Shown here piece after piece: positions 589 through 55,460 of a stretch of 64,000 bases of DNA. Every line of letters starts with the position of its first letter. Position 1 is the first letter of the stretch. Position numbers and translations under genes: made by a program. The notes under the pieces were generated by a model. The model worked only from the letters and a program-made list of their open reading frames with translations, was not told the origin of the DNA and ran no database searches. Origin of the DNA: Bacteroidales bacterium (lineage in GTDB: Bacteria > Bacteroidota > Bacteroidia > Bacteroidales > Muribaculaceae). The DNA lies in contig JAJPXC010000095.1 in the NCBI GenBank assembly GCA_021205635.1, positions 15,076-79,075 of the forward strand. The letters are read 5' to 3'.

Positions 589-1095
589 ATGATCAAAAAA
601 GCACTCAGCGCGCTCTTGATCGCGCTCCCCATGATGGTGGCCGCCCAGGCTCCCAAATTCGGCACCGTAAGCGTAGAGACTGTCTTCGACGCAATGCCCG
701 AGAAAGCCACCATCCAATCCCAGCTTGAAACCGCCTCCAAGACCTACGAGGACGAGTACAAGAAGCTCGCCGACGAGCTCGACAAGAAGTACGCCGAGTA
801 CCAGCAGCTCGACCAGGACGCCTCCACCCCCCAGGCAATCAAGGAGCGTCGCATGCAAGAGATCCAGGAGTTGAACAAGCGCGCCACCCAGTTCGCCCAG
901 ACCGCTCAGCAGGACCTCCAGCGTCAGCAGCAGCAGCTCATGGCTCCCGTTGAGGAGAAGGTGATGAACGCCGTTAAGGCCGTTGGCCAAGAGCAGGGCT
1001 TCCTCTTTATCTTCCCCGACGGATTGAGCGTATACCAGAGCGCCGACGTTGTCGACGTCACCCCCCTGGTTAAAACTAAGCTCGGCCTGAAATAA
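589..1095 (+). CDS. ompH: OmpH/Skp-family periplasmic chaperone (copy 2)
   Basis: ATG ORF, 168 aa; signal peptide; Q/E/K-rich coiled coil; -7-like box TACCTTTG 49 nt upstream. Confidence 0.85.
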   Translation: MIKKALSALLIALPMMVAAQAPKFGTVSVETVFDAMPEKATIQSQLETASKTYEDEYKKLADELDKKYAEYQQLDQDASTPQAIKERRMQEIQELNKRATQFAQTAQQDLQRQQQQLMAPVEEKVMNAVKAVGQEQGFLFIFPDGLSVYQSADVVDVTPLVKTKLGLK

Positions 1096-1261: not shown

Positions 1262-1939
1262 CTAAAACTTGATCTTAGTGGCTTTTCCGCCCTGTACCTT
1301 AATGTTGAGGCCCGATGCGGGGTTCTCCACGATACGGCCTTGCAGGTCGTAATAAGTGGCGGGAGCGTCGCTAGCGTCAACCGATACGCCCTTCACGCCG
1401 CCAAGGTTGTCGATCTTGTTTACCGAGAAATAGAGCTTGCAGGAGATGATTTCCAAGCCGCCGCGAACGGTGAACTTGCCCACCCAAGGACCCTTGGTGT
1501 ACTCTTCGGAGTTGATCTCAACAATCGACTCATCCTCATTGGCGAAAACGTAGGCGATATGCTCGGCGTAACCCGAATACGATTCGCCAGCGGCCAATGT
1601 GGCGCTGTTGGTCCAGCCAGCAAGGCAGTTGCCCAAAAGGCAGAAAGAAATGCCGGTGGGCACATCAAGCACCGACTCCTCGGTTACTTCCTCAAGCGTG
1701 GCCGTGACGTTGAGGCTGGTGGTGCCTTGGTTGGCGATCTTGATGTAGCAGGGAAGCTCGTATTCGTAGCCCTCATCGATGTCCTGGGGACCCCAAATGT
1801 TGATCAGGTCGCCGTCGTTGATTTCGGTGTACTCGGTCGACGAGCCGTTCCACTCGGTGGAGTAGCCAACGTAGAGGTTACCGGCGTTGGTGGTGAACAA
1901 GGTGCCCATAAGGGCCGTAGCGAGTAAAATTTTCTTCAT
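1262..1939 (-). CDS. Secreted hypothetical protein with T9SS C-terminal sorting domain
   Basis: ATG ORF 225 aa; signal peptide; last ~30 aa YYDLQGRIVENPASGLNIKVQGGKATKIKF fit the Por/T9SS CTD pattern; no catalytic motif recognised. Confidence 0.7.
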   Translation of the reverse strand: MKKILLATALMGTLFTTNAGNLYVGYSTEWNGSSTEYTEINDGDLINIWGPQDIDEGYEYELPCYIKIANQGTTSLNVTATLEEVTEESVLDVPTGISFCLLGNCLAGWTNSATLAAGESYSGYAEHIAYVFANEDESIVEINSEEYTKGPWVGKFTVRGGLEIISCKLYFSVNKIDNLGGVKGVSVDASDAPATYYDLQGRIVENPASGLNIKVQGGKATKIKF

Positions 1940-1971
1940 ATAGTAATGGTTTTTGAATTTCTAATACGCCA

Positions 1972-1979
1972 CAAAATTA
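1972..1979 (-). promoter_or_regulatory. -7 box TAATTTTG for 1262-1939
   Basis: Reverse complement of caaaatta; 33 nt upstream of the ATG at 1939. Confidence 0.45.
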
Positions 1980-2043
1980 GTGATTTTTGTGGAATATTCG
2001 CGGAAAAATCGTCGAATGTGACCTTAAAGTCAAGAAATGTGCT

Positions 2044-2051
2044 TATCTTTG
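2044..2051 (+). promoter_or_regulatory. -7 box TATCTTTG for the tlpA-like operon
   Basis: Exact TAnnTTTG, 63 nt upstream of the ATG at 2114; a GGCCCCGcttCGGGGTC hairpin lies in the predicted leader. Confidence 0.45.
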
Positions 2052-2113
2052 TCAATTAAATGCATAATCGTATAAACCTCGGCCCCGCTTCGGGGTCTAA
2101 AGAAATAAAACCA

Positions 2114-2596
2114 ATGAAAAAACTGATTTTCGCTATCGTGGCCCTGGCCATCGCTTTTGTCTCCCAAGCCCAACTCCCCTCAGTAAAACTGCGCGACATC
2201 AACGGCCAGACGGTCGATACCTCCACTCTCTCCAACGACGGCAAGCCCATGATTGTGAGCTTCTTCGCCACGTGGTGCAAGCCTTGCCTGCGCGAGTTGA
2301 AAGCAATCAACGAGGTTTACGAGGAGTGGCAGGAGGAAACCGGCGTGCGCCTGATCGCCGTGTCGATCGACGAGGGCCAGAACTCCTCCAAGGTGCGCCC
2401 CCTGGCCGAAAGCGAGGGCTGGGAATACCAAGTGCTACTCGACCCCAACGGCGAGATGAAGCGCGCCCTGGGCATCCAGATGATCCCCTACGTGATGGTG
2501 CTCGACGGCCAAGGCAACATTGTTTACCAGCATAACGGCTACACCGACGGCGGCGAGGAAGAACTGATTTCTAAAGTAAGAAGTCTTAGTGATTAG
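2114..2596 (+). CDS. TlpA/ResA-like periplasmic thiol-disulfide oxidoreductase
   Basis: Internal ATG at 2114 gives signal peptide MKKLIFAIVALAIAFVSQAQ; thioredoxin active site WCKPC; about 160 aa; the upstream 18 codons of the tracked ORF look non-coding. Confidence 0.85.
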   Translation: MKKLIFAIVALAIAFVSQAQLPSVKLRDINGQTVDTSTLSNDGKPMIVSFFATWCKPCLRELKAINEVYEEWQEETGVRLIAVSIDEGQNSSKVRPLAESEGWEYQVLLDPNGEMKRALGIQMIPYVMVLDGQGNIVYQHNGYTDGGEEELISKVRSLSD

Positions 2597-2620
2597 TGAT
2601 TAGTGATTAAGTATAATAGC
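2587..2620. repeat. (TAGTGAT)x3 array plus arm B of the 27-bp inverted repeat
   Basis: ttagtgattagtgattagtgattaagtataatagc; overlaps the tlpA-like stop codon. Confidence 0.9.
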
Positions 2621-2653
2621 TTGGTTATTGGCCAGTTATTACGATTTTATTAG

Positions 2654-4324
2654 ATGAAAGATAAGATATTCATTGCATTATGGATGACGGGGGCCGCGGC
2701 TTTGGGAGCGGCGGCTCAAACGGTCGACGACGGCACGCCCAACAAGGTCACCGTCCACGGCTCGGTGCAGGCCGACATCCTCATCCCCACCGAGGATGTC
2801 ACCTACGGTGGTTACAAGTATAACGACGATGTGATGCTCAATTTCTACACCGACGCGTCGCTCTACTCCAAATTCGTCGACGCCGGCGTGCGTTTCGAGT
2901 ACCTGGAACATCCCCTTCCCGGCTTTGAGCCTGATTTCAAGGGTTGGGGTGTGCCCAACTTCTGGGTGAAAGGCAAATACGGCGGCGTTGAGCTTACCGT
3001 TGGCGATTTCTACGAGCAATTCGGCTCGGGTTTCATCCTGCGCACATACGAGGAGCGTTCCTTGGGCGTGGACAACCCCATGCGCGGCGCTCGCGTCACT
3101 GTCAACTCAATCGCCGGCATGCGATTCACCGCCCTCGGTGGCGTGCAACGCATCTACTGGGATTGGGAGAAGAAAGATATCGACTGGGGATTGAATTACG
3201 AGATTGACCTACAGCACTTTATCAAATCGATGGACAACCATGGCGCCAGCCTGACGCTCGGTGCCTCGTTCGTCGACAAATACGAGAAGGACGAAAACGT
3301 GGTCGTGCCAGGCACCAATTATCGCCTCGACCTTCCCCACCACGTGCCCGCTTGGGACGCCCGCGTGCACTACCTGCAGAACGGATTTGACGTCCTGGCC
3401 GAATACGCCTGGAAAGGCCAAGACCCCTCCCTCGACAATGATTACACCTACGGCAAGGGCTCGGCTGTGATGCTCTCCACCTCCTACTCTCGCTCGGGCC
3501 TTAGCGTATTTGCCCAAGCCAAGCGCTCTGAGAACTTCGCGTTCCGCTCTCGCCGCACCATGACGGGTATCGCCGGCTACATTAACAACATGCCCCCGTT
3601 CGCCTACCAGCACACCTACGCTCTTGCGGCCATGTACCCTTACGCCACGCAAGCCGCTCCCGGCGAGTGGGCATTCCAGGGAGCCGTTGCCTACAAGTTC
3701 AAGAAAGGCACCCCGATGGGTGGCAAATACGGCACCACCTTCCGCTTGAACGGCTCGTGGATCCGCGGCTTGACAGGCACCGAGCCTGAGAAATTCCACG
3801 GCACCTATTACGGCACCGACGGCGTCGACACCAAGTTCTTCGGCATGGGTGCCGGATACTACCACGACATCAACCTGCAGATGGAGAAGCGTATCGTGAG
3901 CAACTGGAACCTCACAGCCATGTACATGAACCAGATGTACAACCAGCAGGTGGTCGAGGGACACGGCGAGCGCTCAATCAAGAGCAACATCTTCGTCGCC
4001 GACTCCAAGGTGAAAATCAACAAGAAGTTCACTCTGCGCAACGAGGTGCAGTACCTGCAGACCAAACAGGACCACGGCGACTGGCTCTATGGCCTAGCCG
4101 AGCTGTCGATCCTCCCCCACTGGATGATCTCGGTCAGCGACCAATGGAATTGCGGCGGTGGCGAGGGGCATTTCTACAATTTCTCCCTTACCGCCAACTT
4201 CAAGAGCAACCGCATCATGGTGGGCTACGGCCGCACCCGAGCTGGCTACAACTGCTCGGGAGGCGTTTGCCGATATGTGCCTGAGACTAAAGGCTTTACC
4301 ATCAACTACAATTACAATTTCTAA
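2654..4324 (+). CDS. Outer-membrane beta-barrel protein, function unknown (DUF6029-like; family name from memory)
   Basis: ATG ORF 556 aa; signal peptide; Gly/Tyr/Asn-rich alternating pattern; ends ...TINYNYNF with terminal aromatic residue as in OM barrels. Confidence 0.55.
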   Translation: MKDKIFIALWMTGAAALGAAAQTVDDGTPNKVTVHGSVQADILIPTEDVTYGGYKYNDDVMLNFYTDASLYSKFVDAGVRFEYLEHPLPGFEPDFKGWGVPNFWVKGKYGGVELTVGDFYEQFGSGFILRTYEERSLGVDNPMRGARVTVNSIAGMRFTALGGVQRIYWDWEKKDIDWGLNYEIDLQHFIKSMDNHGASLTLGASFVDKYEKDENVVVPGTNYRLDLPHHVPAWDARVHYLQNGFDVLAEYAWKGQDPSLDNDYTYGKGSAVMLSTSYSRSGLSVFAQAKRSENFAFRSRRTMTGIAGYINNMPPFAYQHTYALAAMYPYATQAAPGEWAFQGAVAYKFKKGTPMGGKYGTTFRLNGSWIRGLTGTEPEKFHGTYYGTDGVDTKFFGMGAGYYHDINLQMEKRIVSNWNLTAMYMNQMYNQQVVEGHGERSIKSNIFVADSKVKINKKFTLRNEVQYLQTKQDHGDWLYGLAELSILPHWMISVSDQWNCGGGEGHFYNFSLTANFKSNRIMVGYGRTRAGYNCSGGVCRYVPETKGFTINYNYNF

Positions 4325-4413
4325 AGGAGGTTGAAAGTTTAAGGTTTAAGGTTTAAAGTTAATGGCTTTAAAGATTTAAAGGTTTAAAGATTTAAAGGAT
4401 TAAAGAATAAAGG
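4325..4413. repeat. AT-rich cassette of TTTAAGG / TTTAAAG words ending at the start codon of 4419-5255
   Basis: ggaggttgaaagtttaaggtttaaggtttaaagttaatggctttaaagatttaaaggtttaaagatttaaaggattaaagaataaagg; homologous by eye to 41885-41950. Confidence 0.85.
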
Positions 4414-4418
4414 CGATA

Positions 4419-5255
4419 ATGAAGATTACTAGATATATACCCCTTTTGGCGGTGGCCGCGGTGATGTGGAGCTGCGACGAGGTGGACGAGGGCGACCGCT
4501 ACATCGAGATGCCCACCATCGAGGCGCAGAAGGCCGTGCTCGTGCTCGATTTCACAGGCCAGGAGTGCACCAACTGCCCCAAGGCCCACCTCTCGATCGA
4601 ATCGATGGAGGAGCAGTACGGCGACGCGTTCATCCCCGTGTCGATCCACGCCGGAGTGCAGAGCCTTTCCTACACCTCCACCCGCCGCGTGGGCCTGGCC
4701 ACACCGCTTGGCGAGACCTACGACACTTATTTCGGCATCGCTCCCCACGGCTACCCCTCGATCGTGGTGGATTACAACTCGTCGTCGATCTACTCCGGCA
4801 CAAGCAGCGAGTGGGTTGACCCGTGCCGCAATGCCATGGCCAAGGAAGCCGTCGTGCAGATTGAGGCCGAAGCCACCTGGTCGACCGATGCCGACGGCAA
4901 CGTCACCATCGACGTCGCCACCACCATGATGGCCTCGCAGGATCTCAAATGCAAGCTCCAGCTATGGATTATCGAGGATAGCATCGTGGCACCCCAGAAG
5001 GGCGTCGATGACAACCCCGGATGGGACAACACCTACGTGCACAACAACGTGCTCCGCGCCGCCATCAACGGCGATTGGGGACAAGATGTCAACCTCGATG
5101 ACAACGTCTACACTACCTCGTCGGCCTCGTTCACCATCACCACCGACTGGGAGAAAACCTGGGTGGTCGACAACCTGCGCGTAGTGGCCTTCTGCTACAC
5201 CGACGCCGACGGAGTCCTTCAGGCCATCCGCCAGCCCGTCCTCCCGGCCCTTTAA
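4419..5255 (+). CDS. Omp28-related thioredoxin-fold lipoprotein with CxxC
   Basis: ATG ORF 278 aa; lipobox ...AAVMWSC; VLVLDFTGQECTNCPKAH motif typical of Omp28-related proteins. Confidence 0.65.
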   Translation: MKITRYIPLLAVAAVMWSCDEVDEGDRYIEMPTIEAQKAVLVLDFTGQECTNCPKAHLSIESMEEQYGDAFIPVSIHAGVQSLSYTSTRRVGLATPLGETYDTYFGIAPHGYPSIVVDYNSSSIYSGTSSEWVDPCRNAMAKEAVVQIEAEATWSTDADGNVTIDVATTMMASQDLKCKLQLWIIEDSIVAPQKGVDDNPGWDNTYVHNNVLRAAINGDWGQDVNLDDNVYTTSSASFTITTDWEKTWVVDNLRVVAFCYTDADGVLQAIRQPVLPAL

Positions 5256-5283
5256 TCCTTTCCTCCTTTAAAGGATGAAAGGA
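5256..5283. repeat. 28-bp palindrome TCCTTTCCTCCTTT|AAAGGATGAAAGGA
   Basis: 13 of 14 arm positions pair, no loop; begins right after the stop codon of 4419-5255. Confidence 0.85.
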
Positions 5284-5327
5284 ATACAGGAAGAAAGAAA
5301 TCGATCTAAAAACTTAATAAAACGATT

Positions 5328-7739
5328 ATGAAAAAAAGTTTACTATTAGCATCTATGGCCGTTGCGCTGGGATTCATGGCGCAAGGCCAAGCCATCAACC
5401 CCCGCGCCTTGTGGATGGAGGGTGGCAAAATAGAGTCGCCCAAGGCCCAAGCCAAGGCCGTTCAGCCCAAGGCTGAAAGCTCCATGTGGTTCGGCTACTG
5501 CGGCGACCCCTACACCCTTGTGGGCGCCGGCTCCTACTACTGCACCGCCGCTATGGAGATCCCCGCTTCTACCGCCGCGGGCTTCGCCGGCTGCAAGATC
5601 GACGGCTTCCGCATGGTGTTCAAAACCGCTTCCGTCTCCAGCGCCACCCTCTTCGTGGGCAACTCCCTGGATACCGCTCCTAGCAACACCCAAACCATCT
5701 CGGTCGCTCTCAACTCCACCAACTGGCAGGAGTTTACCCTGAGCAACCCCGTCACCCTCGACGGCTCCACCGTATACATCGGCTTCGGCTACCAGGGTGT
5801 ATCGGGTGAGTATCCCATTGTGTTCGACGGATTGACCAACAGCAACAACCTGGGCGCTTGGCTCGGCCTCGGCAGCTCGTTCGCTGAATGCTTTGGCTCC
5901 TTTGACAGCTACACCGCATCCTACGGCAACGTCTGCATCCAGGCCCACATCACCGGCGACTTCCCCGAGGTGAACACCTACATCAGCGCTGTCACCGTTG
6001 ACCGCAACCGCGTGAAGCCCAACACCGCCTTTGACGCTACCGTAACCATCGCCAACATGGGTACCACCGACGTCACCAGCGTCACCGTTGACTACACGAT
6101 TGGCAACATTGCCGACACCTACACCTTCAACACCCCCTCGTTGGCTCCCTTGAAGTTCACCGAGTCGACCTTCTTCACCCTCTCAGGCCTCACGGTGCCC
6201 GATTTCGGCGAATACCCCTTGACCGTGAAATTGACCAAGGTCAACGGCGCCGATTGCGACGAGTCGACCGCCACAGTTAGCATCGTGGGCACTCGCAGCA
6301 ACAATCCCCGCATGATGGTTGTCGAGGAGGCCACCTCCATCGGCTGCGGCTACTGCCCCGTGGGCATCATCGGCCTTGAGTACATGAAGGAGCATTACGG
6401 CGACCAGTTCATCGGTATCGGCGTGCACGGAATCGGTCTGGGTTACGACCCCATGGTAAGCGCCTCCTATCAAGTTATGGACTACTATGTATCGAGCTAT
6501 CCTTCCTGTCTTACCAATCGTAACGACTCCTACGCCACCTATCCCAGCGCCTACTACCTGCTCGACTCCTACACCACCTACTTCAAGGACGCCTACGCAG
6601 CCGCCGACGTTACGATCGACGCCGAGTGGACCACCCAGGAGAAGTCGGGCGTGAAGGTTACCACCAACGCGGTATTCGACCTCGACCACGCCTCGAGCGA
6701 CTACCGCTGGGCTTACGTGGTGATTGAAAATCAAGTAGGTCCCTACAAGCAGTCCAACTATTACAACGGTGAATCGGGTTACGGCGACTGGTCATCCGCT
6801 GGTTCATCGGTATCTTGGTTGTTTGACGAAGTTGGCCGCAGCATCAACTCGTTCTGGGGCGTGCAAGGCTCAGTGCCCTCGGCTATCACCGCCGGCAACA
6901 GCTACGAGAACAGCGGCGAGCTCCAAGTGCTCGACCTGATCAACTACTACGACGAATACGTTGAGGTTAACCCCGAAAACATCGAGGTAATCGGCATGCT
7001 GATCGACTACACAACCGGTGAGGTGGTTACGGCCGCCCGCATCGACGCCGCCGACATCAAGGCTTGCTCCGACCCCAACGCCATGCACTACCAGAAGATC
7101 ATCTTCGACCCCGACCTTGAGGGCAATGTCACCATCGGTTCTTCGTTGACTATCGAAGCAACTTCCACCTCCGGTCTGCCAGTCACCATCGGCATCTCCT
7201 CGGGCGATGAGTACGCTACCCTTGAGGGCAACGTGATCACCTTCAACGCCGCCGGCACCGTAGTTGTCACCCTCTCGCAGGACGGCAACGACACCTATAT
7301 GCCCGCTACCTCGCGCACCATCACCTTCAAGGTGCTCAAGGATCAAACCATCACCTGGGATCAGGACCTCTCCAATTGCGAGATCGGCAAGAGCTACGCC
7401 CTTACCGCCAAGTCGTCGGCCAACCTGACCATCACCTACTCGATCAAGGAGGACACCACCGTCGCCAAGATCCAGAAGACCTCCCGCGGCACCTCGCTCG
7501 TGTTCAATGAGGCTGGCACAGTCACCGTTGTGGCTACTCAGGAAGGCAATTCAACCTACGCTCCCGCGCAAATGGAGAAGGTTGCCTCTACCCAGTCGGG
7601 CGTGATCTCGATTGACGCCGACGAGCTCCAGGATGCCATGCTCTACAACCTCCAGGGCGTTCGCGTCAACAACCCCCAAGCCGGCCGCATCTACATTATG
7701 GTCACCGGCTCCTCCGCCCAGAAAGTCCTAATCATATAG
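5328..7739 (+). CDS. Large T9SS cargo protein with central Omp28-like CxxC thioredoxin-fold domain and Ig-like repeats
   Basis: ATG ORF 803 aa; signal peptide; MMVVEEATSIGCGYCPVG motif; two ~90-aa repeats (ITFN/VFNEAGTV..V..QEGN.TY.PA); CTD ...LYNLQGVRVNNPQAGRIYIMVTGSSAQKVLII. Confidence 0.65.
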   Translation: MKKSLLLASMAVALGFMAQGQAINPRALWMEGGKIESPKAQAKAVQPKAESSMWFGYCGDPYTLVGAGSYYCTAAMEIPASTAAGFAGCKIDGFRMVFKTASVSSATLFVGNSLDTAPSNTQTISVALNSTNWQEFTLSNPVTLDGSTVYIGFGYQGVSGEYPIVFDGLTNSNNLGAWLGLGSSFAECFGSFDSYTASYGNVCIQAHITGDFPEVNTYISAVTVDRNRVKPNTAFDATVTIANMGTTDVTSVTVDYTIGNIADTYTFNTPSLAPLKFTESTFFTLSGLTVPDFGEYPLTVKLTKVNGADCDESTATVSIVGTRSNNPRMMVVEEATSIGCGYCPVGIIGLEYMKEHYGDQFIGIGVHGIGLGYDPMVSASYQVMDYYVSSYPSCLTNRNDSYATYPSAYYLLDSYTTYFKDAYAAADVTIDAEWTTQEKSGVKVTTNAVFDLDHASSDYRWAYVVIENQVGPYKQSNYYNGESGYGDWSSAGSSVSWLFDEVGRSINSFWGVQGSVPSAITAGNSYENSGELQVLDLINYYDEYVEVNPENIEVIGMLIDYTTGEVVTAARIDAADIKACSDPNAMHYQKIIFDPDLEGNVTIGSSLTIEATSTSGLPVTIGISSGDEYATLEGNVITFNAAGTVVVTLSQDGNDTYMPATSRTITFKVLKDQTITWDQDLSNCEIGKSYALTAKSSANLTITYSIKEDTTVAKIQKTSRGTSLVFNEAGTVTVVATQEGNSTYAPAQMEKVASTQSGVISIDADELQDAMLYNLQGVRVNNPQAGRIYIMVTGSSAQKVLII

Positions 7740-7866: not shown

Positions 7867-7928
7867 CAGCCCCGAAGGGGCGGTTTGGCTTACCCTCTTG
7901 GGAAGCCCAAATCGTTCCTTTGGGGCTG
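7867..7928. other. 62-nt nested hairpin CAGCCCCGAAGG...CCTTTGGGGCTG
   Basis: Outer stem 11 of 12 bp; inner stem GGTTTGGCTT/AAGCCCAAATC; in a 354-nt gene-free spacer. Confidence 0.6.
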
Positions 7929-8093: not shown

Positions 8094-8951
8094 ATGCAGA
8101 TTGATACGCTATATGTGACCGATTTGGACGGCACGCTGCTCGGCCCCGACAGCCTCATCAGTCCCCGTTCGGCCGAATTGATCAGCCGACTGGTGGAGGA
8201 AGGCGCCAAGATCACTGTGGCCACCGCGCGCACTCCGGCAACCGTGGAAACCCTCCTTGAGGGCACTTACACCCGCTTGCCGGTGATCGTGCTTACCGGG
8301 GCCGCGATGTGGGATCGCGAGCGACGCCGATACCTGTACCCCCACTTTATCGACAACGACCTCGCGGAAGCCGTCCTTGACGAGTTTCGTCGAGCCAACG
8401 TCGCCCCATTCGTCTACACCTTGCGCGACGACGGCATCCTCCACGTCTACCACAACGGCGAGATGAACGACGTTTCCCGCGAGTTCATGAACGAGCGCCT
8501 CAATCTCCCCCTGAAGAAATTCCACCTCGACCTGCCCGAGATGGACACTGCCCGCTTTATCCCCTCCACCGTCCTCTACTTCGCCATGGGCAAAGCCGAC
8601 AAGGTATACCCCCTGGCCGACGCCATACGCCAGCGTGTCGACTGCTCGGTCTACTCCTATCTCGACATCTTCCACCCCGACGTGGCAATCATCGAGGTAT
8701 TCGCGGCACAGGTGTCCAAGGCCAACGCCGTCAAGAAGCTCGCCCGCCGCGAGGGACTCAAGCGCATCGTCGTCTTCGGCGACTCATCCAACGACGTGCC
8801 CATGATGGACATCGCCGACGTCGCGGTGGCACCCGAGAACGCCATCCTCGACGCCAAGCGAGCCGCCCACGTCATCATCCCCGGCAACGACCACGACTCG
8901 GTGGCCGAATTCATCCTCCACGACTATTATTCAACCGACGTTGACGTATAG
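8094..8951 (+). CDS. HAD-IIB (Cof-type) phosphatase
   Basis: ATG ORF 285 aa; motif I VTDLDGTLL, motif II TARTP, motif IV FGDSSNDVPM. Confidence 0.85.
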   Translation: MQIDTLYVTDLDGTLLGPDSLISPRSAELISRLVEEGAKITVATARTPATVETLLEGTYTRLPVIVLTGAAMWDRERRRYLYPHFIDNDLAEAVLDEFRRANVAPFVYTLRDDGILHVYHNGEMNDVSREFMNERLNLPLKKFHLDLPEMDTARFIPSTVLYFAMGKADKVYPLADAIRQRVDCSVYSYLDIFHPDVAIIEVFAAQVSKANAVKKLARREGLKRIVVFGDSSNDVPMMDIADVAVAPENAILDAKRAAHVIIPGNDHDSVAEFILHDYYSTDVDV

Positions 8952-10166
8952 ATGAGAGATATTTACGCCATACGACGCTACGGCAAGCTGGGATTTCTGG
9001 TGCTCTCAGCCCTGGTGGTGTGCGTGTTCCTCTACTACGGCAACAACTTGGTCGACGACCTCGCCGAGCAGGAGCGCGAGCGCATGCAGATATGGGCCGA
9101 CGCCACCAAGGAGATCGTCAACGCCTCGTCGATGGACTCGGATGACGGTTTCGGCGGGGGCAACGTTGAGTTCCTCCTCTCCATCATCGAGCGCAACCAC
9201 ACCATCCCCGTCCTGCTCACCGACGACGACGGCACAATACTACTACACCGCAACTTCGACCTGCCCGAGCCCCAGGACTCCATGGCGCCCTACTACACCT
9301 CACCCGTCAACGAGGCATTCCTCGAGAAGAAACTGGAGGATCTTAAGGGCACCAACAACGTCATTGAGATCAACATCGGTCCCGACAACCTACAGCGCCT
9401 CTACTACGAGGACTCCACCCTGCTCAAGCGCTTGAGCCTATACCCCTACATCCAGTTGCTGGTGATGCTGGCGTTTATCGCCGTTGTCTACTTCGCCGTC
9501 ACCTCCACCAAGACAGCCGAGCAGAACAAGGTGTGGGTAGGTCTCTCCAAGGAAACCGCTCACCAGCTTGGCACGCCCATCTCCTCGCTATTGGCTTGGG
9601 TGGAACTGCTGGAGAGCCTCGGCGTCGACCAGGAGACCGTCACCGAGATCTCCAAGGACGTCAACCGCCTCAACACCATCGCCTCGCGCTTCAGCAAGAT
9701 TGGCTCGCAGCCACAGATGGAGGCGGCCGACCTTAACGAGGTGGTGGAACGCGCAGCCTCCTATATGCGCACGCGCATCTCCTCGCGTATCAACCTCTCG
9801 ATCAACCTCTACCCCGAGGCGCTGCCAGTGAAGGTGTCGGCACCCCTTTTCGAGTGGGTGATGGAGAACCTTATCAAGAACGCCGTCGACGCCATGGAAG
9901 GCTCCGGCTCGATTACCGTCACCACCGCCGTCGACCCCTCGGGCAAGCCCTACGTTGAGGTGGCCGACACAGGCCGAGGCATTCCCCGCAAGAAGCAAAA
10001 GACCATCTTCAACCCCGGCTACACCACCAAGAAACGCGGCTGGGGCCTAGGCCTGACACTCGCCAAGCGCATCATCGAGCAGTACCACCGCGGACGCATC
10101 TACGTGGCCTCCTCCGAGCCCGGCCGCGGCACCACCTTCCGCATCGACCTCCCCCTCAACTCCTAA
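8952..10166 (+). CDS. Orphan membrane sensor histidine kinase (no receiver gene adjacent)
   Basis: ATG abuts the HAD stop codon (TAG ATG); two TM segments flanking a ~140-aa loop; H-box ETAHQLGTPISS, N-box ENLIKNAVDA, G-boxes ADTGRGIP and GWGLGL. Confidence 0.85.
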   Translation: MRDIYAIRRYGKLGFLVLSALVVCVFLYYGNNLVDDLAEQERERMQIWADATKEIVNASSMDSDDGFGGGNVEFLLSIIERNHTIPVLLTDDDGTILLHRNFDLPEPQDSMAPYYTSPVNEAFLEKKLEDLKGTNNVIEINIGPDNLQRLYYEDSTLLKRLSLYPYIQLLVMLAFIAVVYFAVTSTKTAEQNKVWVGLSKETAHQLGTPISSLLAWVELLESLGVDQETVTEISKDVNRLNTIASRFSKIGSQPQMEAADLNEVVERAASYMRTRISSRINLSINLYPEALPVKVSAPLFEWVMENLIKNAVDAMEGSGSITVTTAVDPSGKPYVEVADTGRGIPRKKQKTIFNPGYTTKKRGWGLGLTLAKRIIEQYHRGRIYVASSEPGRGTTFRIDLPLNS

Positions 10167-10635: not shown

Positions 10636-13600
10636 ATGAAGAAATCGTTACGCGCATTAGCAGCCTTGGCTTTGGCCGCGCTGCTGTCTACGCCAACGCC
10701 CGCCTCTGCCGACACCAAGCGCGAGATGCGCTCCACGTGGCTCGCCACTGTGTGGGCCATCGACTGGCCCTCCTCCACCGGCACCTCCTCCTCTGTGATC
10801 ACAAAGCAGAAAAAGGAACTTACCGACTATCTCGACCAAATGGTCGAAACCAACATGACCTCCGTGTGCTTCCAGGTGCGATCCATGTGCGACGCCATGT
10901 ACAATTCGTCTTACGAGCCTTGGAGCTCTTACCTCACCGGCTCTCGCGGCACCAACCCCGGCTGGGATCCCCTCTCCTTCTGCGTTGAGGAGTGCCACAA
11001 GCGCGGCATCGAGTGCTACGCGTGGGTCAACCCCTACCGCTACTCCACCGGTTCCAACTGGACCACCACGCAGGACAAAGCCCTCGAAAACGGCGGGTAT
11101 ATCCTCACCTACGGCACCACCAAGATCCTCAACCCCGGCCTTGAGTACTGCCGTCAGCGCATCGTGAACGTGTGCCAGGAGATTATCACCAACTACGCTG
11201 TCGACGGTATCCTCTTCGACGACTATTTCTACCCCAACGGTATCCCCGAATCATCCTCGGCCGAGGACTACACCCTGTGGAAAAACTCGGGCACATCCCT
11301 CTCCTTCGGCAACTGGCGCCGCTCCAACGTCAACCAGATGGTGAAGGACGTTTACGACATGATCCAGGCAAGCCGTCCCGACGTGCGGTTCGGTATCGCC
11401 CCCGCCGGTGGTGCTGGTGCCGACTACGCCTCCTATCCCGGCATGCCCAAGCCCGGCACATGGAGCGACTGGCAGTACTCGGGCATCTACTCGGCCCCGC
11501 TGGCGTGGATGAACGCCGGCACGGTCGACTTCATCTCGCCCCAGCTTTACTGGTCGTGCGATCACTCAACCAACCCCTTCGGGCCCATGTGCTCATGGTG
11601 GAGCCAAGCCGCCGAGCTGTTCAACCGCCACTTCTACGCTTCCCACTCGCTGAGCGAGATCGCGTCGTCGTCATCTCCCTCGACCGTCATCGCCGACCGC
11701 GTGCAGCAGGTGGGCTACAACCGTCAATACACCCCCAACAACGCTCCCGGCTCGATCTTCTACTCCCAGAAGAATTTCAACTCGTCGATGCGCGCGGCCC
11801 TGCTTGCCGACTATTTCTCCAAGCCCGCCCTCACCCCGGTAATTACCTGGAAGACCGCCGACAACTACTCGGCTCCCGCCTCCGGCTCCCACTCCGGCAC
11901 CACGTTGACATGGAGCGCAGTCACCAACTCATCTCGCTCCAACGCCATCATCCGCTACTCGGTGTACGCCGTGCCCACCACCACCGACCTTGACAACGCC
12001 AAGGGCGCTGACGGCGACGGTATCTCAGTAGACTACCTCCAAGGAGTAAGCTACTCCACCACCTATACCCTCGACTCATCGAAAAAGAGCGGCTACTGGT
12101 ACGCCATCTGCGTGCTCGACGGCTACGGCAACGAATTTGAGCCGCTGCTCATCGACTATCCCTCCTACAGCGAGACCACCGCTCCCTCCCTCATCTCCCC
12201 GGCCAACGGAGAGGGCCTCGCCGACGAGGTGGCATTCTCGTGGAGCAACGCCGGCGCCGACACTTACGACCTGCAGATTTCGGCCACCTCCGACTTCTCC
12301 ACCATCAAATACTCGCTCAACACCTCCACCACCACCGCTCTCGTGGGTGGCGGATACCTCGGCGTGGGCACCTGGTACTGGCGCGTCGTGGCCAACAAGA
12401 GCGGCTACAAGAGCGCGGCCAGTTCCTCGCGCAAGTTTATCCTCACTTCCATCTCGGTGGGCAGCTATGAGCCGGGCTACTCGATCATCACCGACGGCTG
12501 CGACTACTCAGCGTCAACGGCATTCTCGGTGAAGAACGACTGGATACGCTCCACCGCATCGTCCTTCGGCAACTTCACCACCGAGAGCGACGGCGTGCTC
12601 AACCGCACCTTTGTGGCCGTGGGTGACTACCTCTACCTCTCGGGCCGCACCGAGAACGCATCGTCGGCCACCTGCTACCTCGGCAAGTACGACCGCTACA
12701 CCGGCGAGCACATCTCCGACATCATCCTCGGCTCGGCCGCCTCTATGAGCTATTACCCCTGCAATACCGTGCTCCGCGACGAGGCCGGCCACGTGATGAT
12801 CGCCAACCTCACCCTCAACATCTCCTCCACTCCGCTGGTGATTCAAGCCGTCGACCTTGAGACAGGCGACCTCACCACCCTGGCCTCACTCACCTACTCG
12901 GGTGGCGGCCGCGTGGATCATGCCGCTGTCTATGGCGACATCTCCTCGTCGACCTACTACATCTTCGCTATGGTGGCTTCCTCCAACACGCTGCTGCGCT
13001 GGAAGGTGTCCAACGGCACCGCCAACTCGGGCAATGCCTACACCATGGCTACGCCCTACAACAACGCGGCCAACGTGGGTATCGCCCCGCTGGTAATCCC
13101 CGTAAGCGCTTCGCAGGTACTGATCAACGGCCAAAACATCGCCCTCACCCGCTACAAGGTATCCAACGGCAACATCGTTGGCAGCTTCAACGACGCCGAC
13201 TCGTCGGTCAAGCCCTCGTCGTCAACCGGCAATGGTGGCTCATTCTTCAACCTCGGCGATAGCTACTTTATGGTGTACCCCTCGGATACCGCCGCCGACG
13301 GCCACCACTTCACCATTGTTACCACCGACAGCGACTACTCGTTCGCGTCGATGGCCAACCCCGTGAAGATCCCCGGTTGCGGCCTCGGAACGGTTAACTC
13401 CACCACCGCAATCGCCCAAACCGACTATGTGCTCAACTCCGACGGCACCTCGGCCGGGGTTTACGTCTACGCCCCGGGCAACGGCTTCTCGGCCTACACA
13501 ATCTCCACTGCCACCTCGGGTGTCAACACCATCCAGGGTATCGTCGACTCCACCGCTCCGGTTGAGTACTACAACCTGCAGGGCATCCGCGTGGCCCAGC

Positions 13601-13662
13601 CCACCCCCGGCAACATCTACATCCGCCGCCAAGGCACGCAAGTATCAAAAATCAAGCTTTAA
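10636..13662 (+). CDS. Glycoside-hydrolase-like family 10 (GHL10/DUF187) protein with C-terminal extension, T9SS cargo
   Basis: ATG ORF 1008 aa; signal peptide; REMRSTWLATVWAIDWP and following ~370 aa resemble GHL10 TIM-barrel proteins; long Ser/Thr/Tyr-rich beta region; CTD VEYYNLQGIRVAQPTPGNIYIRRQGTQVSKIKL. Confidence 0.7.
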   Translation: MKKSLRALAALALAALLSTPTPASADTKREMRSTWLATVWAIDWPSSTGTSSSVITKQKKELTDYLDQMVETNMTSVCFQVRSMCDAMYNSSYEPWSSYLTGSRGTNPGWDPLSFCVEECHKRGIECYAWVNPYRYSTGSNWTTTQDKALENGGYILTYGTTKILNPGLEYCRQRIVNVCQEIITNYAVDGILFDDYFYPNGIPESSSAEDYTLWKNSGTSLSFGNWRRSNVNQMVKDVYDMIQASRPDVRFGIAPAGGAGADYASYPGMPKPGTWSDWQYSGIYSAPLAWMNAGTVDFISPQLYWSCDHSTNPFGPMCSWWSQAAELFNRHFYASHSLSEIASSSSPSTVIADRVQQVGYNRQYTPNNAPGSIFYSQKNFNSSMRAALLADYFSKPALTPVITWKTADNYSAPASGSHSGTTLTWSAVTNSSRSNAIIRYSVYAVPTTTDLDNAKGADGDGISVDYLQGVSYSTTYTLDSSKKSGYWYAICVLDGYGNEFEPLLIDYPSYSETTAPSLISPANGEGLADEVAFSWSNAGADTYDLQISATSDFSTIKYSLNTSTTTALVGGGYLGVGTWYWRVVANKSGYKSAASSSRKFILTSISVGSYEPGYSIITDGCDYSASTAFSVKNDWIRSTASSFGNFTTESDGVLNRTFVAVGDYLYLSGRTENASSATCYLGKYDRYTGEHISDIILGSAASMSYYPCNTVLRDEAGHVMIANLTLNISSTPLVIQAVDLETGDLTTLASLTYSGGGRVDHAAVYGDISSSTYYIFAMVASSNTLLRWKVSNGTANSGNAYTMATPYNNAANVGIAPLVIPVSASQVLINGQNIALTRYKVSNGNIVGSFNDADSSVKPSSSTGNGGSFFNLGDSYFMVYPSDTAADGHHFTIVTTDSDYSFASMANPVKIPGCGLGTVNSTTAIAQTDYVLNSDGTSAGVYVYAPGNGFSAYTISTATSGVNTIQGIVDSTAPVEYYNLQGIRVAQPTPGNIYIRRQGTQVSKIKL

Positions 13663-15678: not shown

Positions 15679-15996
15679 TCACTTCTCGTCGCTCTTCGTG
15701 CCCTCGTGCTCGTAGATCTTGGCCACGAGCAGTTCGGCCTGCTGAACGCCTACGGTGCGCCATACGGGCTTGCCGCATTTGAACAGGATCAGCGTGGGCA
15801 CTGATTGGACGTGATACTGGGCGGCCAGCTCCTGGTTGCGATCGATGTCGATTTTGACTATCGTGCCGTGGTCGCCGATTTTCTCTTTCACTTGCTCAAG
15901 GATTGGGCTCTGCATCTTGCAAGGGCCGCACCATGTGGCGTAGAAGTCGACCAAGGTCGGCTTTTCGCTGTTGATTATGTCAGTAAACTGGCTCAT
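15679..15996 (-). CDS. trxA: Thioredoxin
   Basis: ATG ORF 105 aa; canonical WCGPCK active site and thioredoxin length. Confidence 0.95.
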   Translation of the reverse strand: MSQFTDIINSEKPTLVDFYATWCGPCKMQSPILEQVKEKIGDHGTIVKIDIDRNQELAAQYHVQSVPTLILFKCGKPVWRTVGVQQAELLVAKIYEHEGTKSDEK

Positions 15997-53795: not shown

Positions 53796-53975
53796 ACAAA
53801 ATGTTGTTAAAACCACTCTTTTCGCGCTCAAAATGCCACAAAATTCGCCCTAATTCACCAAAAAGCAATCAAAACATTTGCAATGTCAATTTTTCTGCAT
53901 ATATTCGCGCATTACATTACGATAACCCTTTTACAGAGAAAAAAACGATATAATAAAAAACTAAAAGTTAAGTGT

Positions 53976-55460
53976 ATGAGAAAAATTTACGCTCTTGCCC
54001 TTTTGGCCGCCTCGACTCTCGCCGCCTCGGCCAACGGCACAACCGACATCCTCAACCAGGTCGCTCCCCAGCGCGCCGTTTTCCCTGAGAAAACAGCCAC
54101 CCTCACCCGTCATGACATGACAAAGGGCGCCCCCGCAAAGGCCGCATCCGCCTCCGAGATCGCCGGCGTATACGACGCCAAGTATTATGGCCCCCTCAGC
54201 AGCAACTCGGGTTGGAACACCGCCCAGTTCACCATCTCAGCCACCTCCGACACCGAGCTGTCGATTGTGGGCTTCTATAGCATCTACCCCGTAACCGGCA
54301 CCTACGATTCCGAGGCTGGCACTATCACCATGGCCACCAATCAGGTGATGCTCCACAACACTTATTATGACGAGGATGTCTACTTCACTACCGGCCGATG
54401 GAACGACAGCGGACAAGGTTTCTACGCCACCGAATCACTCGTTGGCACAGTGGAAGAGGACGGCTCTATCTCCTTTGACAGCGACGACCTCTTCTTCGTA
54501 CAGGTCACCGCAGGTTACTTCAACGCCGGTTACTACCTCAGCCTCACCCCATACGTGGAGCCTACCTACTCGTTCTCGGTAACCAACTGCCTCTGCGCCG
54601 ACGACAACCTGTTCTCCGCCACCATCGAGGCCGAAAACGTGGCCGATATTAAGGTTGGCCTTTTCCTCGGTAAATACTCCGCATCCGACTCCAACTTTAG
54701 CTATGTGGCCACCAACGGCTCATCTATCCAGCCCGGTGATTTCTCCTTTAGCTTCGATGGCAAAGACGCCGGCGCAGCCACCATCTTCTTCGTAGCCCTT
54801 GACGAAAGCGGCAACGTGCTTGAGGGAGTAGGCTGCCGATTCTACATCACCTACGACAACGACGACGAATGGGAGCTCCTCGGCAAAGCCACCTACACCG
54901 ACAATATCGTCACCTCGTCTTACAACTTCGGTGTCACCAGCATCGACTATGAGGTGGAAGTTCAGCAGTCAACCGGCATCGAGAATTACTACCGTATCGT
55001 CAACCCCTATGGTGCATCGACTCCGTTTAGCAACTACTCACTCACCGACCACAACCATTACCTCTACATCAACGCTTACGACCCCGAGGCCGTCGTGATC
55101 GAGGAAAGCCCCATTGGCATTGACGTCGAGGACGACGACAGTGAGATGTGGGTTGTAGGCCTGGCACCTACTTACGGAACTACCTACGGCACCATGGTCG
55201 ACAACGTAATCACCTTCCCCGCCAGCTCAATCCTCGTGGGTTACGGTAACGGATCATCCCTATACTACAGCAACAAGAACGGCCTTTTCTCCCTCATCCT
55301 CCCCGAGGGCGACTCCGGAGTAAAAGACCTAACCACTCACAACTCACACCTCACCACTCCCGTTTACTACAACCTCCAGGGCCAAATCGTCACCAACCCC
55401 GTCGCCGGCCAGCTCTACATCGAAAAGACCGGCTCCGAAGCTCGCAAAATCATCTACTAA
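53976..55460 (+). CDS. Secreted hypothetical protein with T9SS CTD
   Basis: ATG at 53976 gives signal peptide MRKIYALALLAASTLAASANG; 494 aa, beta-rich, no recognised motif; CTD PVYYNLQGQIVTNPVAGQLYIEKTGSEARKIIY. Confidence 0.65.
   Translation: MRKIYALALLAASTLAASANGTTDILNQVAPQRAVFPEKTATLTRHDMTKGAPAKAASASEIAGVYDAKYYGPLSSNSGWNTAQFTISATSDTELSIVGFYSIYPVTGTYDSEAGTITMATNQVMLHNTYYDEDVYFTTGRWNDSGQGFYATESLVGTVEEDGSISFDSDDLFFVQVTAGYFNAGYYLSLTPYVEPTYSFSVTNCLCADDNLFSATIEAENVADIKVGLFLGKYSASDSNFSYVATNGSSIQPGDFSFSFDGKDAGAATIFFVALDESGNVLEGVGCRFYITYDNDDEWELLGKATYTDNIVTSSYNFGVTSIDYEVEVQQSTGIENYYRIVNPYGASTPFSNYSLTDHNHYLYINAYDPEAVVIEESPIGIDVEDDDSEMWVVGLAPTYGTTYGTMVDNVITFPASSILVGYGNGSSLYYSNKNGLFSLILPEGDSGVKDLTTHNSHLTTPVYYNLQGQIVTNPVAGQLYIEKTGSEARKIIY

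Follow-up and report, generated by a model that had tools for sequence, protein, structure and literature searches.

A conserved tlpA-DUF6029-omp28-porA envelope operon of Bacteroidota with conserved cysteine pairs and a possible role in thiol-disulfide exchange towards the cell surface

Introduction

Which function could bring together a periplasmic thiol:disulfide oxidoreductase, a large outer-membrane barrel, a lipoprotein, and secreted proteins, all with a pair of cysteines? This question is raised by a locus of five genes in a 64,000-nucleotide (nt) stretch of DNA from a Bacteroidales bacterium of the Muribaculaceae, represented by a metagenome-assembled genome (contig JAJPXC010000095.1); the whole stretch is referred to as the window in the following. 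Gene 0 lies on the reverse strand, and genes 1 to 4, on the forward strand, encode a TlpA-like protein, a DUF6029 protein, an Omp28 lipoprotein, and a large secreted protein, respectively. A first-pass annotation, made from the sequence alone, had combined genes 1 to 4 into an envelope module and suspected that gene 0 might belong to it. Here, we report that the locus represents, in its Muribaculaceae form, an envelope operon that is deeply conserved in Bacteroidota. Regarding its function, we tentatively propose, with somewhat less than even confidence, an envelope-spanning thiol-disulfide system that reaches from the periplasm to the surface and is built on a complex of the barrel and Omp28.

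Each of the protein families is already catalogued and three relatives are characterised, while the operon as a system is undescribed. Omp28 is known as an immunoreactive lipoprotein, PorA as a type IX secretion system (T9SS) regulatory ligand, and HBP35 as a surface thioredoxin and hemin binder; together with 00502 of Paraprevotella clara, these separately studied proteins belong to or adjoin one conserved operon, of which the TlpA-like reductase and the DUF6029 barrel are the core members that were never studied. The earlier statement that the Omp28-related family has no assigned biochemistry has to be corrected in view of the work on HBP35 (PMC2907840), 00502 (PMC9477747), and PorA (PMC12152298). 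Our literature searches found no paper treating DUF6029, PG2174/PG2175, or the operon as a unit, and no functional work on DUF6029 and PG2173-2175 / PGN_0124-0126; the only item was a suggestion, based on HHpred, that DUF6029 is a polysaccharide porin. The operon partners of porA are not mentioned in the PorA literature that we found.

Results

Conservation of the operon across Bacteroidota

We analyzed the surroundings of 80 DUF6029 genes, taking one genome per species, mostly from Muribaculaceae, Paraprevotella, and Prevotellaceae. A TlpA-like gene was located immediately 5' of the DUF6029 gene on the same strand in 79 of 79 species, and an Omp28 lipoprotein gene immediately 3' of it in 80 of 80, with reading frames that often overlap. 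In 71 of 78 species, omp28 is followed by a gene for a protein of about 230 amino acids (aa), at a median gap of 27 nt. The genes for four distant Omp28 lipoproteins, which are 29-33% identical to the gene 3 product and one of which comes from activated sludge, all lie directly after a DUF6029 gene. This arrangement is far beyond chance, and the synteny substantiates the earlier view that the genes form a conserved functional unit. In the window itself, the four co-directional genes are separated by 57, 94, and 72 nt, in agreement with the spacers of 57-94 nt noted before.

Among the 50 loci with at least 5 kb of sequence on both sides, 36 contain a large Omp28-domain protein. A downstream gene for a WCGYCP-type protein of about 650 aa, like gene 4, was found in 25 of these 50 loci, and a divergent upstream gene for a CxNCP-type protein of about 1260 aa in 11. 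Large cargo proteins with a thioredoxin (Trx) module also cluster with the core in distant loci. Such cargo has been recruited beside the core at least twice independently, in two architectures, which is the strongest argument for a redox system. The conserved core is tlpA-DUF6029-omp28-porA, and the large CxxC cargo, represented by gene 4, is a lineage-variable add-on. The four-gene module of the first-pass annotation consequently stands for tlpA, DUF6029, and omp28, whereas gene 4 is variable and porA is the fourth member of the core.

All five proteins of the locus contain a conserved cysteine pair, i.e. WCKPC in the gene 1 product, CSGGVC in the barrel, CxNCP in Omp28, CxGGxC/CLLGNC in the PorA family and gene 0, and CGYCP in the gene 4 product. 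The CxxC motif is present in 149 of 149 Omp28-domain proteins (89/89 small and 60/60 large ones). Conservation of these cysteines in orthologues, synteny, and the predicted Trx and barrel folds described below all turned out as the first-pass annotation had anticipated.

Two further gene arrangements were observed. Just upstream of tlpA and on the same strand, many Muribaculaceae genomes encode a protein of some 570 aa that bears a T9SS tail and no further Pfam domain (L065:7624-9321, L035:7550-9247, and roughly 20 more loci); this protein may be an additional accessory member. One distant locus (L089:7001-11864) contains three tandem Omp28-domain genes after DUF6029, coding for 334, 616, and 445 aa, and the 616-aa protein also has a BACON-like segment.

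Table 1. Position of the features of the locus and of related features in the window (aa, amino acids; AF2, AlphaFold2; nt, nucleotides).
Feature	Position	Strand	Basis
Gene 0, probable PorA-family small secreted protein, 225 aa	1262..1939	-	profile alignment
Divergent intergenic region, 174 nt	1940..2113		sequence read directly
Gene 1, TlpA/ResA-like periplasmic thiol:disulfide oxidoreductase, 160 aa	2114..2596	+	Pfam AhpC-TSA, Redoxin
Gene 2, DUF6029 outer-membrane beta-barrel, 556 aa	2654..4324	+	Pfam, AF2 model
Gene 3, Omp28-family lipoprotein, 278 aa	4419..5255	+	NF033782, AF2 model
Gene 4, secreted multidomain protein, 803 aa	5328..7739	+	hhalign, PDB profile match
Terminator-like GC hairpin GCCCCGAAGGGGC and T-rich tail	7869..7895	+	pattern match only
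Proteins with the shared C-terminal tail	1262-1939(-), 5328-7739(+), 10636-13662(+), 19245-21941(+), 53883-55460(+)		motif

The TlpA-like protein and the DUF6029 barrel

The gene 1 product matches the Pfam families AhpC-TSA (76.7 bits, gathering threshold 26, E 1.9e-21) and Redoxin (68.3 bits, gathering threshold 26.6, E 7.9e-19). The signal peptide and the thioredoxin site that had been recognised before are both present. The active site WCKPC comprises aa 54-58 (nt 2273-2287) and is kept in about 77 of 80 orthologues, the version of Porphyromonas gingivalis being NCKPC; the N-terminal signal peptide, as read from the sequence, is MKKLIFAIVALAIAFVSQA, which ends in SQA and precedes Q. Under the NCBIfam models, the protein scored below the cut-offs for ResA (71.8 vs 170), TlpA (42.4 vs 230), DsbE (53.5 vs 123), and StoA (59.9 vs 210). 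Because these scores lie far under the equivalog cut-offs, we regard gene 1 as coding for a member of the TlpA-like family that is no orthologue of a characterised enzyme.

The gene 2 product had been described as a barrel ending in YNYNF, and this assignment is supported by prediction. It matches DUF6029 (PF19494) with 554.1 bits (threshold 27, E 4e-166) over profile positions 13-538 of 538, and YNYNF forms the aromatic signal at its C-terminal end. The AlphaFold2 (AF2) model is a closed barrel of 24 long antiparallel strands with medium confidence (predicted local distance difference test, pLDDT, 65; predicted template modelling score, pTM, 0.62). Foldseek matched this model with a probability of 1.0 to barrels of 22-26 strands, the best matches being the FimD/PapC ushers (TMq 0.45-0.51), TonB-dependent transporters, and LptD. 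Since the model resembles these three groups alike, we consider the protein a large barrel to which no known protein is specifically related. Searched against the PDB by sequence, DUF6029 returned spurious matches to RecA fusions only, and neither a TonB box nor a plug domain was detected by Pfam or in the AF2 model.

The cysteine pair CSGGVC of the barrel (aa 534-539, nt 4253-4270) lies in the last hairpin and loop, which is predicted by the model to be extracellular; the motif C[SA]GGVC was found in 80 of 80 DUF6029 proteins of the species sample. We compared conservation along the barrel in 90 DUF6029 sequences that are 28-100% identical to gene 2. The segments 120-142, 294-337, and the hairpin 529-544, assigned to the outer side by strand parity, had conservation values of 0.92, 0.82, and 0.89, compared to 0.73 for the strands. 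Ordinary porins have the opposite pattern. This suggests that the outer loops of DUF6029 are covered by a partner or folded into the lumen.

The Omp28 lipoprotein

The gene 3 product exceeds the thresholds of the NCBIfam model for the Omp28 lipoprotein (NF033782, 243.3 bits vs 150) and of Pfam Omp28 (109 bits vs 34.9), and its C-terminal half matches the solved Omp28 domain of P. gingivalis (PDB 2r2c, E 5e-14). The lipobox noted earlier is present, and an AF2 model of high confidence (pLDDT 92.3) places the CxxC where helix 1 of a Trx fold begins. In this model, strand 40-46 is followed by C50 and C53 at the N-terminus of helix 53-70, and a beta-sandwich comprises aa 146-276; the motif itself, CTNCP, covers aa 50-54 (nt 4566-4580). 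The invariant Pro113 lies just before strand 114-117, the place expected for the cis-Pro of a Trx fold. The lipid Cys19 (nt 4473-4475), C50, and C53 are each conserved in at least 90% of the sequences, and the alignment additionally revealed conserved H77, P113, Q193, and R213. The best Foldseek match of the model was HBP35 (5y1a, E 4e-10, TMq 0.62), followed by the DUF1223 protein 2axo and then 2r2c. The existence of a selenoprotein variant of the Omp28 family (NCBIfam NF045500) argues for catalytic redox chemistry in this family.

The lipid cysteine is followed by the acidic sequence DEVDEGDRYIE. An acidic stretch after the lipid cysteine, the lipoprotein export signal (LES), directs Bacteroidota lipoproteins to surface exposure (PMC6222051). 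The LES-like stretch reads CDEVDE in gene 3, and two to four D/E residues occur at this place in 71 of 75 homologues. The Omp28 lipoprotein is therefore predicted to be surface-exposed, and the layout of the system would comprise the periplasm and the surface; this makes the three successive compartments of the first-pass annotation doubtful. In addition to the acidic residues, the linker of aa 19-39 (nt 4473-4535) contains the conserved residues D-R-Y-I-E, which suggests that this part may be a specific docking segment.

Gene 0 and the PorA family

In P. gingivalis, whose contigs were recovered with the 2r2c fragment, the gene order is tlpA-like (160 aa, NCKPC), DUF6029 (581 aa, NCSGGVC), Omp28 (290 aa, CLNCP), and a 249-aa open reading frame (ORF), which is PorA (PDB 6KJK, E 7.5e-80). 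The stop codon of omp28 overlaps the start codon of porA as TAATG. PorA is a ligand of PorY, which it binds through its C-terminal domain (CTD), thereby activating PorXY-SigP (PMC12152298). Its surface localisation is independent of the T9SS (PMC7712824, PMC12152298), it also uses PorV and PorU, and its N-terminal domain is FimH-lectin-like (PMC7712824).

In other species, the proteins of about 230 aa encoded after omp28 carry a signal peptide, a beta domain some 135 aa long, and a CTD matching solved T9SS sorting domains; their CxGGxC cysteines are invariant in the alignment (70/70 and 69/70). Gene 0 encodes a signal peptide, then a beta domain some 140 aa long with CLLGNC as its cysteine pair (aa 100-105, nt 1625-1642), and finally a short tail of T9SS-like appearance; it had no match in Pfam or NCBIfam. 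Aligned by hhalign against the profile of the small gene following omp28 (A4), which was built without gene 0, it gave a probability of 97.1% (E 5e-11, 191 columns) with CLLGNC in register with CxGGxC. P. gingivalis PorA matched the same profile with a probability of 98.8%, so that the homology of gene 0 to PorA is transitive only, via A4. Direct comparison of gene 0 and PorA by BLASTP was not significant (E 0.5), a phmmer search of the PDB with gene 0 found nothing, and the A4 profile did not match the PorA chain in the PDB, which holds the N-domain only. A hidden Markov model (HMM) of the N-domain alone, again built without gene 0, missed gene 0 and reached its orthologue in locus L008 at E 0.0085; hhalign restricted to the N-domain of gene 0 was weak (probability 42%, E 2.6e-4). 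We discounted the match of gene 0 to an iterated full-length HMM (4e-21), because gene 0 had entered that model.

In the window and in L008, gene 0 is located divergently upstream of tlpA and not downstream of omp28. On the basis of the profile match, gene 0 is probably the relocated PorA-family member of this locus, and the earlier suspicion that the divergent gene belongs to the unit is supported by the usual position of the family after omp28. The gene would have moved to the divergent upstream place in the window, where the HBP35-like gene 4 follows omp28.

Gene 4 and the short C-terminal tails

The gene 4 product consists of an N-terminal domain, a CARDB-like immunoglobulin (Ig) domain, a Trx domain with beta-sandwich, two Ig-like repeats (about aa 590-760, 39% identity, E 6e-15), and a short T9SS-like tail. 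The HBP35/Omp28-type module covers aa 323-580, with CGYCP at aa 340-344 (nt 6345-6359). Pfam did not yield a match for the protein, and an Omp28 match near CGYCP was only weak. In contrast, hhalign of the alignments of the gene 4 family and of Omp28 gave a probability of 99.6% (E 2e-23), in which aa 323-580 correspond to Omp28 aa 33-278, i.e. the whole mature lipoprotein. Equivalent residues include the CxxC, a His after strand 2, a Pro (Omp28 Pro113), and Gln and Arg of the sandwich. The best PDB match of the gene 4 family profile was HBP35 (5y1a, E 1.4e-9), through VVLEVFTAEWCGYCPGG. Since the whole protein stays under the cut-off of NF033782 (25.7 vs 150), it shares a domain with Omp28 but is no Omp28 lipoprotein.

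Of the features ascribed to gene 4 by the first-pass annotation, the CxxC in the middle of the protein and the two Ig-like repeats were verified, whereas curated models did not recognise the T9SS sorting domain. For gene 0, gene 4, and the GHL10 protein (10636-13662), the last 68-72 residues had no match to PF18962 or TIGR04183 at E<=10. The tail of gene 0 aligned, with a deletion, to the CTD part of the A4 profile (hhalign), and this profile matches the solved CTDs 8glk_D and 8glj_D as well as the RgpB CTD. In addition, the motif YYNLQGxRVxxPxxGxxYIxxxGxxxxKI is common to at least five proteins of the window (Table 1). The tails of genes 0 and 4 resemble T9SS CTDs only by remote profile homology and by this shared motif; the short tail appears to be a Muribaculaceae version of the sorting domain, reduced in length, which standard annotation would miss. 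T9SS machinery genes were not found among the window ORFs scanned. Another carrier of a short sorting-like tail, the 898-aa protein encoded at 19245-21941 (+), has no Pfam domain at E<=1e-5.

Characterised relatives of the cargo proteins

HBP35 of P. gingivalis reduces insulin in a C48/C51-dependent manner and complements an E. coli dsbA mutant; it binds hemin through aa 135-344 without a requirement for its cysteines, and under hemin limitation the growth of hbp35 mutants is poor (PMC2907840). A preprint of July 2026 describes HBP35-like T9SS thioredoxin proteins in Muribaculaceae and speculates on protection from reactive oxygen species (ROS) and on iron (PMC13404670).

The second relative, 00502, is a T9SS-dependent Omp28-related surface protein, which recruits trypsin and promotes its autodegradation; as a factor of a gut commensal that removes trypsin, it affects IgA and viral infection (PMC9477747). 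We located PROKKA_00502 at L087:5493-9284(-) in P. clara YIT 11840 (NZ_JH376591), where both the published peptide FTDQATLQNM and the 00502 primers map. The protein contains an EFTGTDCPNCP Trx-type module and a Pfam Omp28 domain, and it is encoded 170 nt from divergent tlpA-DUF6029-omp28-porA-like genes. Thioredoxin is not mentioned for 00502 in the text of Li et al. 2022 (PMC9477747). The possibility that the genes 00503-00508 of that work are tlpA-DUF6029-omp28 was rejected, as the primers map to the other side of 00502, among SusC-like and neighbouring genes; the redox operon of P. clara was thus never mutated in that study. Gene 4 and 00502 are 26% identical over 333 aa (BLASTP), a stretch confined to the Trx module, and gene 4 is no orthologue of 00502 as judged from this comparison.

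Flanking genes and putative transcription signals

A candidate Bacteroidota-type -7 box, TATCTTTG, is present at 2044-2051 on the forward strand, about 60 nt 5' of the start of gene 1; the consensus of this box is TAnnTTTG. A scan for sigma-70 promoters gave matches at or below the shuffled expectation. The hairpin listed in Table 1 starts 130 nt past the stop codon of gene 4 and likely marks the end of the transcription unit; the count of terminator-like hairpin sites in the region was not above the shuffled expectation. No RNA family was found in an Rfam search of the window.

Directly upstream of the module, two tandem OmpH/Skp genes are located at 11-526 and 589-1095 (+). On the same public contig, UppS and BamA precede this pair (L001:1096-5741), and the redox operon therefore abuts a bamA-skp-skp cluster for envelope biogenesis. 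On the other side, directly after the terminator-like hairpin, a gene for a Cof-type HAD-IIB hydrolase (8094-8951, +) abuts a histidine-kinase gene (8952-10166, +) without a spacer, and nothing ties this pair to the module. A classical cytoplasmic-type thioredoxin of 105 aa is encoded about 8 kb downstream of the module (about 15679-15996, -).

Discussion

A putative thiol-disulfide system from periplasm to surface

In the system that we tentatively propose, the TlpA-like protein would be the periplasmic source of reducing equivalents and would itself be kept reduced by an inner-membrane transporter of the CcdA/DsbD type encoded elsewhere. DUF6029 and Omp28 would combine into a complex of barrel and lipoprotein, comparable to LptDE or SusCD, with the conserved, putatively extracellular loops of the barrel and the DRYIE linker of Omp28 as contact surfaces, and the wide lumen of the barrel might bring the CxxC of Omp28 within reach of TlpA. 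Omp28 could then recycle or exchange disulfides with Trx modules on the surface, namely those of gene 4, HBP35, and 00502-type cargo; further targets may be the CxGGxC of PorA-type proteins and the CSGGVC of the barrel itself. The output would be reduction or isomerisation of disulfides at the surface, either in the bacterium's own surface proteins or in host proteins. The large Trx-module cargos are exported by the T9SS (PMC9477747, PMC7712824), and the feature common to cargo and core is hence the CxxC module and not the export route.

A more specific version, in which the operon is a trans-outer-membrane conduit for thiol-disulfide exchange that leads from TlpA via a DUF6029 barrel occupied by Omp28 to the surface Trx modules, appears doubtful to us. 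In such a conduit, HBP35, 00502, and gene 4 would act on host or bacterial surface proteins by reduction or isomerisation of their disulfides, and the inactivation of trypsin by 00502 would be disulfide chemistry. Possibly, the barrel also gives PorA its T9SS-independent route to the surface, which the conduit does not require.

Several points weigh against the proposed system. We know of no precedent for thiol-disulfide transfer across an outer membrane, and the redox relay, the DUF6029-Omp28 complex, and the orientation of Omp28 are predictions. The barrel model has only medium confidence and is least confident in the conserved loops, and its topology derives from strand parity counted from a periplasmic N-terminus and from nothing else. 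At the level of genes, the locus contains no CcdA/DsbD gene, TlpA is adjacent in three of the four distant Omp28 loci and missing from this position in one, and fusions of DUF6029 with TlpA or Omp28 were not found in the best 150 of 1209 representatives. In addition, the four cysteines of PorA are dispensable for signalling (PMC12152298), and recombinant 00502 on beads promotes trypsin degradation without an added partner (PMC9477747).

Alternative functions

The alternative that survives best is an export or maturation pathway, in which DUF6029 would be a conduit or assembly platform that takes Omp28 and the PorA-family protein to the surface, bypassing the T9SS translocon. The TlpA-like protein would act in transit only; in the periplasm, it would hold the cysteines of CxGGxC and CxxC in the reduced form and maintain the substrates fit for export, and Omp28 would oxidise or isomerise the substrates at the surface, with no standing electron flow. 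TlpA-family proteins typically serve one co-encoded substrate in maturation (ResA/CcmG, TlpA/Sco), which counts in favour of this pathway. It would also explain the behaviour of PorA and the usher-like size of the barrel: porA ends the operon in P. gingivalis, and its family closely follows omp28 elsewhere (71/78 species, median gap 27 nt). The ushers head the Foldseek matches of the barrel model, and PorA has an N-domain that is FimH-lectin-like (PMC7712824); furthermore, complementation of dsbA by HBP35 is an oxidase-type activity (PMC2907840). However, the usher match is generic, as the scores of TonB-dependent transporters and LptD are similar, PorV and PorU are used by PorA as well (PMC7712824), and many surface lipoproteins of Bacteroidota are exposed without a dedicated barrel. 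Export also leaves the clustering of T9SS-dependent Omp28-module cargo in 36 of 50 loci unexplained, and we consider this pathway rather unlikely.

The conserved histidines of Omp28 (His77 and His208) and the resemblance of a barrel with a surface lipoprotein to the SusCD and BtuBG pairs would fit capture and uptake of a nutrient such as heme, iron or a different metal, or a compound with a disulfide. In this case, Omp28 and gene 4 would bind the ligand at the surface, its reduction or release would be the task of the CxxC, DUF6029 would offer a passive channel, and resetting the system in the periplasm would fall to TlpA. The hemin binding of HBP35 via its beta-sandwich region and the weakness of hbp35 mutants under hemin limitation (PMC2907840) as well as the iron-related role proposed in the 2026 preprint for an HBP35-like Muribaculaceae T9SS thioredoxin-domain protein (PMC13404670) point in the same direction. 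Nevertheless, uptake is improbable: the barrel lacks a TonB box and a plug domain, the cargo classes have Phe in place of the second conserved His, and no heme or iron transport genes recur in the annotated contexts of the loci. Moreover, HBP35 binds hemin independently of its cysteines, yet cysteines are the most conserved feature of the operon.

A surface antioxidant defence would use the hardware of the relay to repair oxidised Cys/Met or to remove peroxides, without specific protein substrates. The matches of gene 1 to AhpC/TSA and Redoxin are compatible with this function, and Muribaculaceae surface proteins with thioredoxin domains were associated with a high-fat diet, for which ROS protection was proposed (PMC13404670). 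This association concerns other, unverified proteins, however; no peroxiredoxin-type signature beyond the CxxC was seen, in the absence of a dedicated test, and the PorA-family member and the invariant cysteine pairs of the barrel and PorA remain unexplained, all of which makes such a defence quite improbable.

Very improbable, finally, is a polysaccharide-export porin DUF6029 with functionally unrelated redox neighbours, since these neighbours are strictly conserved and translationally coupled (79/79, 80/80, 71/78), the annotated contexts contain no OPX, Wzx, or glycosyltransferase genes, and the model has 24 strands compared to the 18 of the Wzi barrel. This porin goes back to a likeness, found by HHpred, of plug-less Wzi-like barrels to DUF6029, from which polysaccharide secretion was suggested (PMC9603273). 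The strict synteny (79/79, 80/80) leads us to reject it together with the view that the genes are neighbours by chance.

The link of these proteins to one operon makes several questions testable: by which way PorA gets to the surface when the T9SS translocon is not used, how a surface thioredoxin such as HBP35 could be recycled outside the periplasm, and whether 00502 acts on trypsin via its overlooked CxxC module. If the proposal is true, the supply of reducing power across the outer membrane would add a new principle to the envelope biology of a dominant phylum of the gut and the mouth.

Comparison with known systems

One close counterpart is the porA locus of P. gingivalis (PG2175-PG2172 / PGN_0123 region), which has the same tlpA-DUF6029-omp28 order. 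The two loci differ in that the PorA-like gene of the window is divergent and upstream and that the 803-aa HBP35-like gene follows omp28. A signal peptide, some 140 aa of beta domain, and a CxxxxC pair occur in PorA as well as in gene 0. PorA has a CTD and gene 0 a tail that resembles a shortened one; pairwise similarity of the two was not detected.

HBP35 (PG0616; PDB 5y1a) consists of a Trx fold with WCGYCP, the motif of the gene 4 class, a beta-sandwich, and a T9SS CTD, and it is both the best structural match of the gene 3 model and the best PDB sequence match of the gene 4 family profile. Gene 4 differs from it by about 320 additional N-terminal residues and two additional Ig repeats, it reads GCGYCP instead of WCGYCP, and its putative CTD escapes curated models. 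In the case of 00502, the likeness consists in the Omp28-type module of Trx fold and beta-sandwich, and its 1260-aa class holds the divergent position in 11 of 50 loci. Unlike gene 4, 00502 has N-terminal beta-propeller, choice-of-anchor J, and Big_5 domains.

Regarding the barrel, the counterparts are complexes of a barrel and a lipoprotein (the LptDE plug-and-barrel, the SusCD and BtuBG lids) and the chaperone-usher pores. The likeness lies in a large barrel, in the range of 22-26 strands, whose gene neighbours that of a lipoprotein, and the conserved outer loops of DUF6029 suggest a covering partner. In contrast to these systems, DUF6029 has no sequence homology to them, no plug, TonB box, or POTRA, and no usher plug domains; the likeness is architectural only and is known here from genes and models.

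The pathways from DsbD/CcdA to TlpA, ResA, and CcmG, finally, serve cytochromes or copper proteins, whereas the partners of gene 1 are a barrel, a lipoprotein, and surface proteins. What the gene 1 product has in common with these pathways is its nature as a secreted protein with a CxxC motif and a Trx fold of the AhpC-TSA/Redoxin type, and the position of its gene beside those of its presumed substrates.

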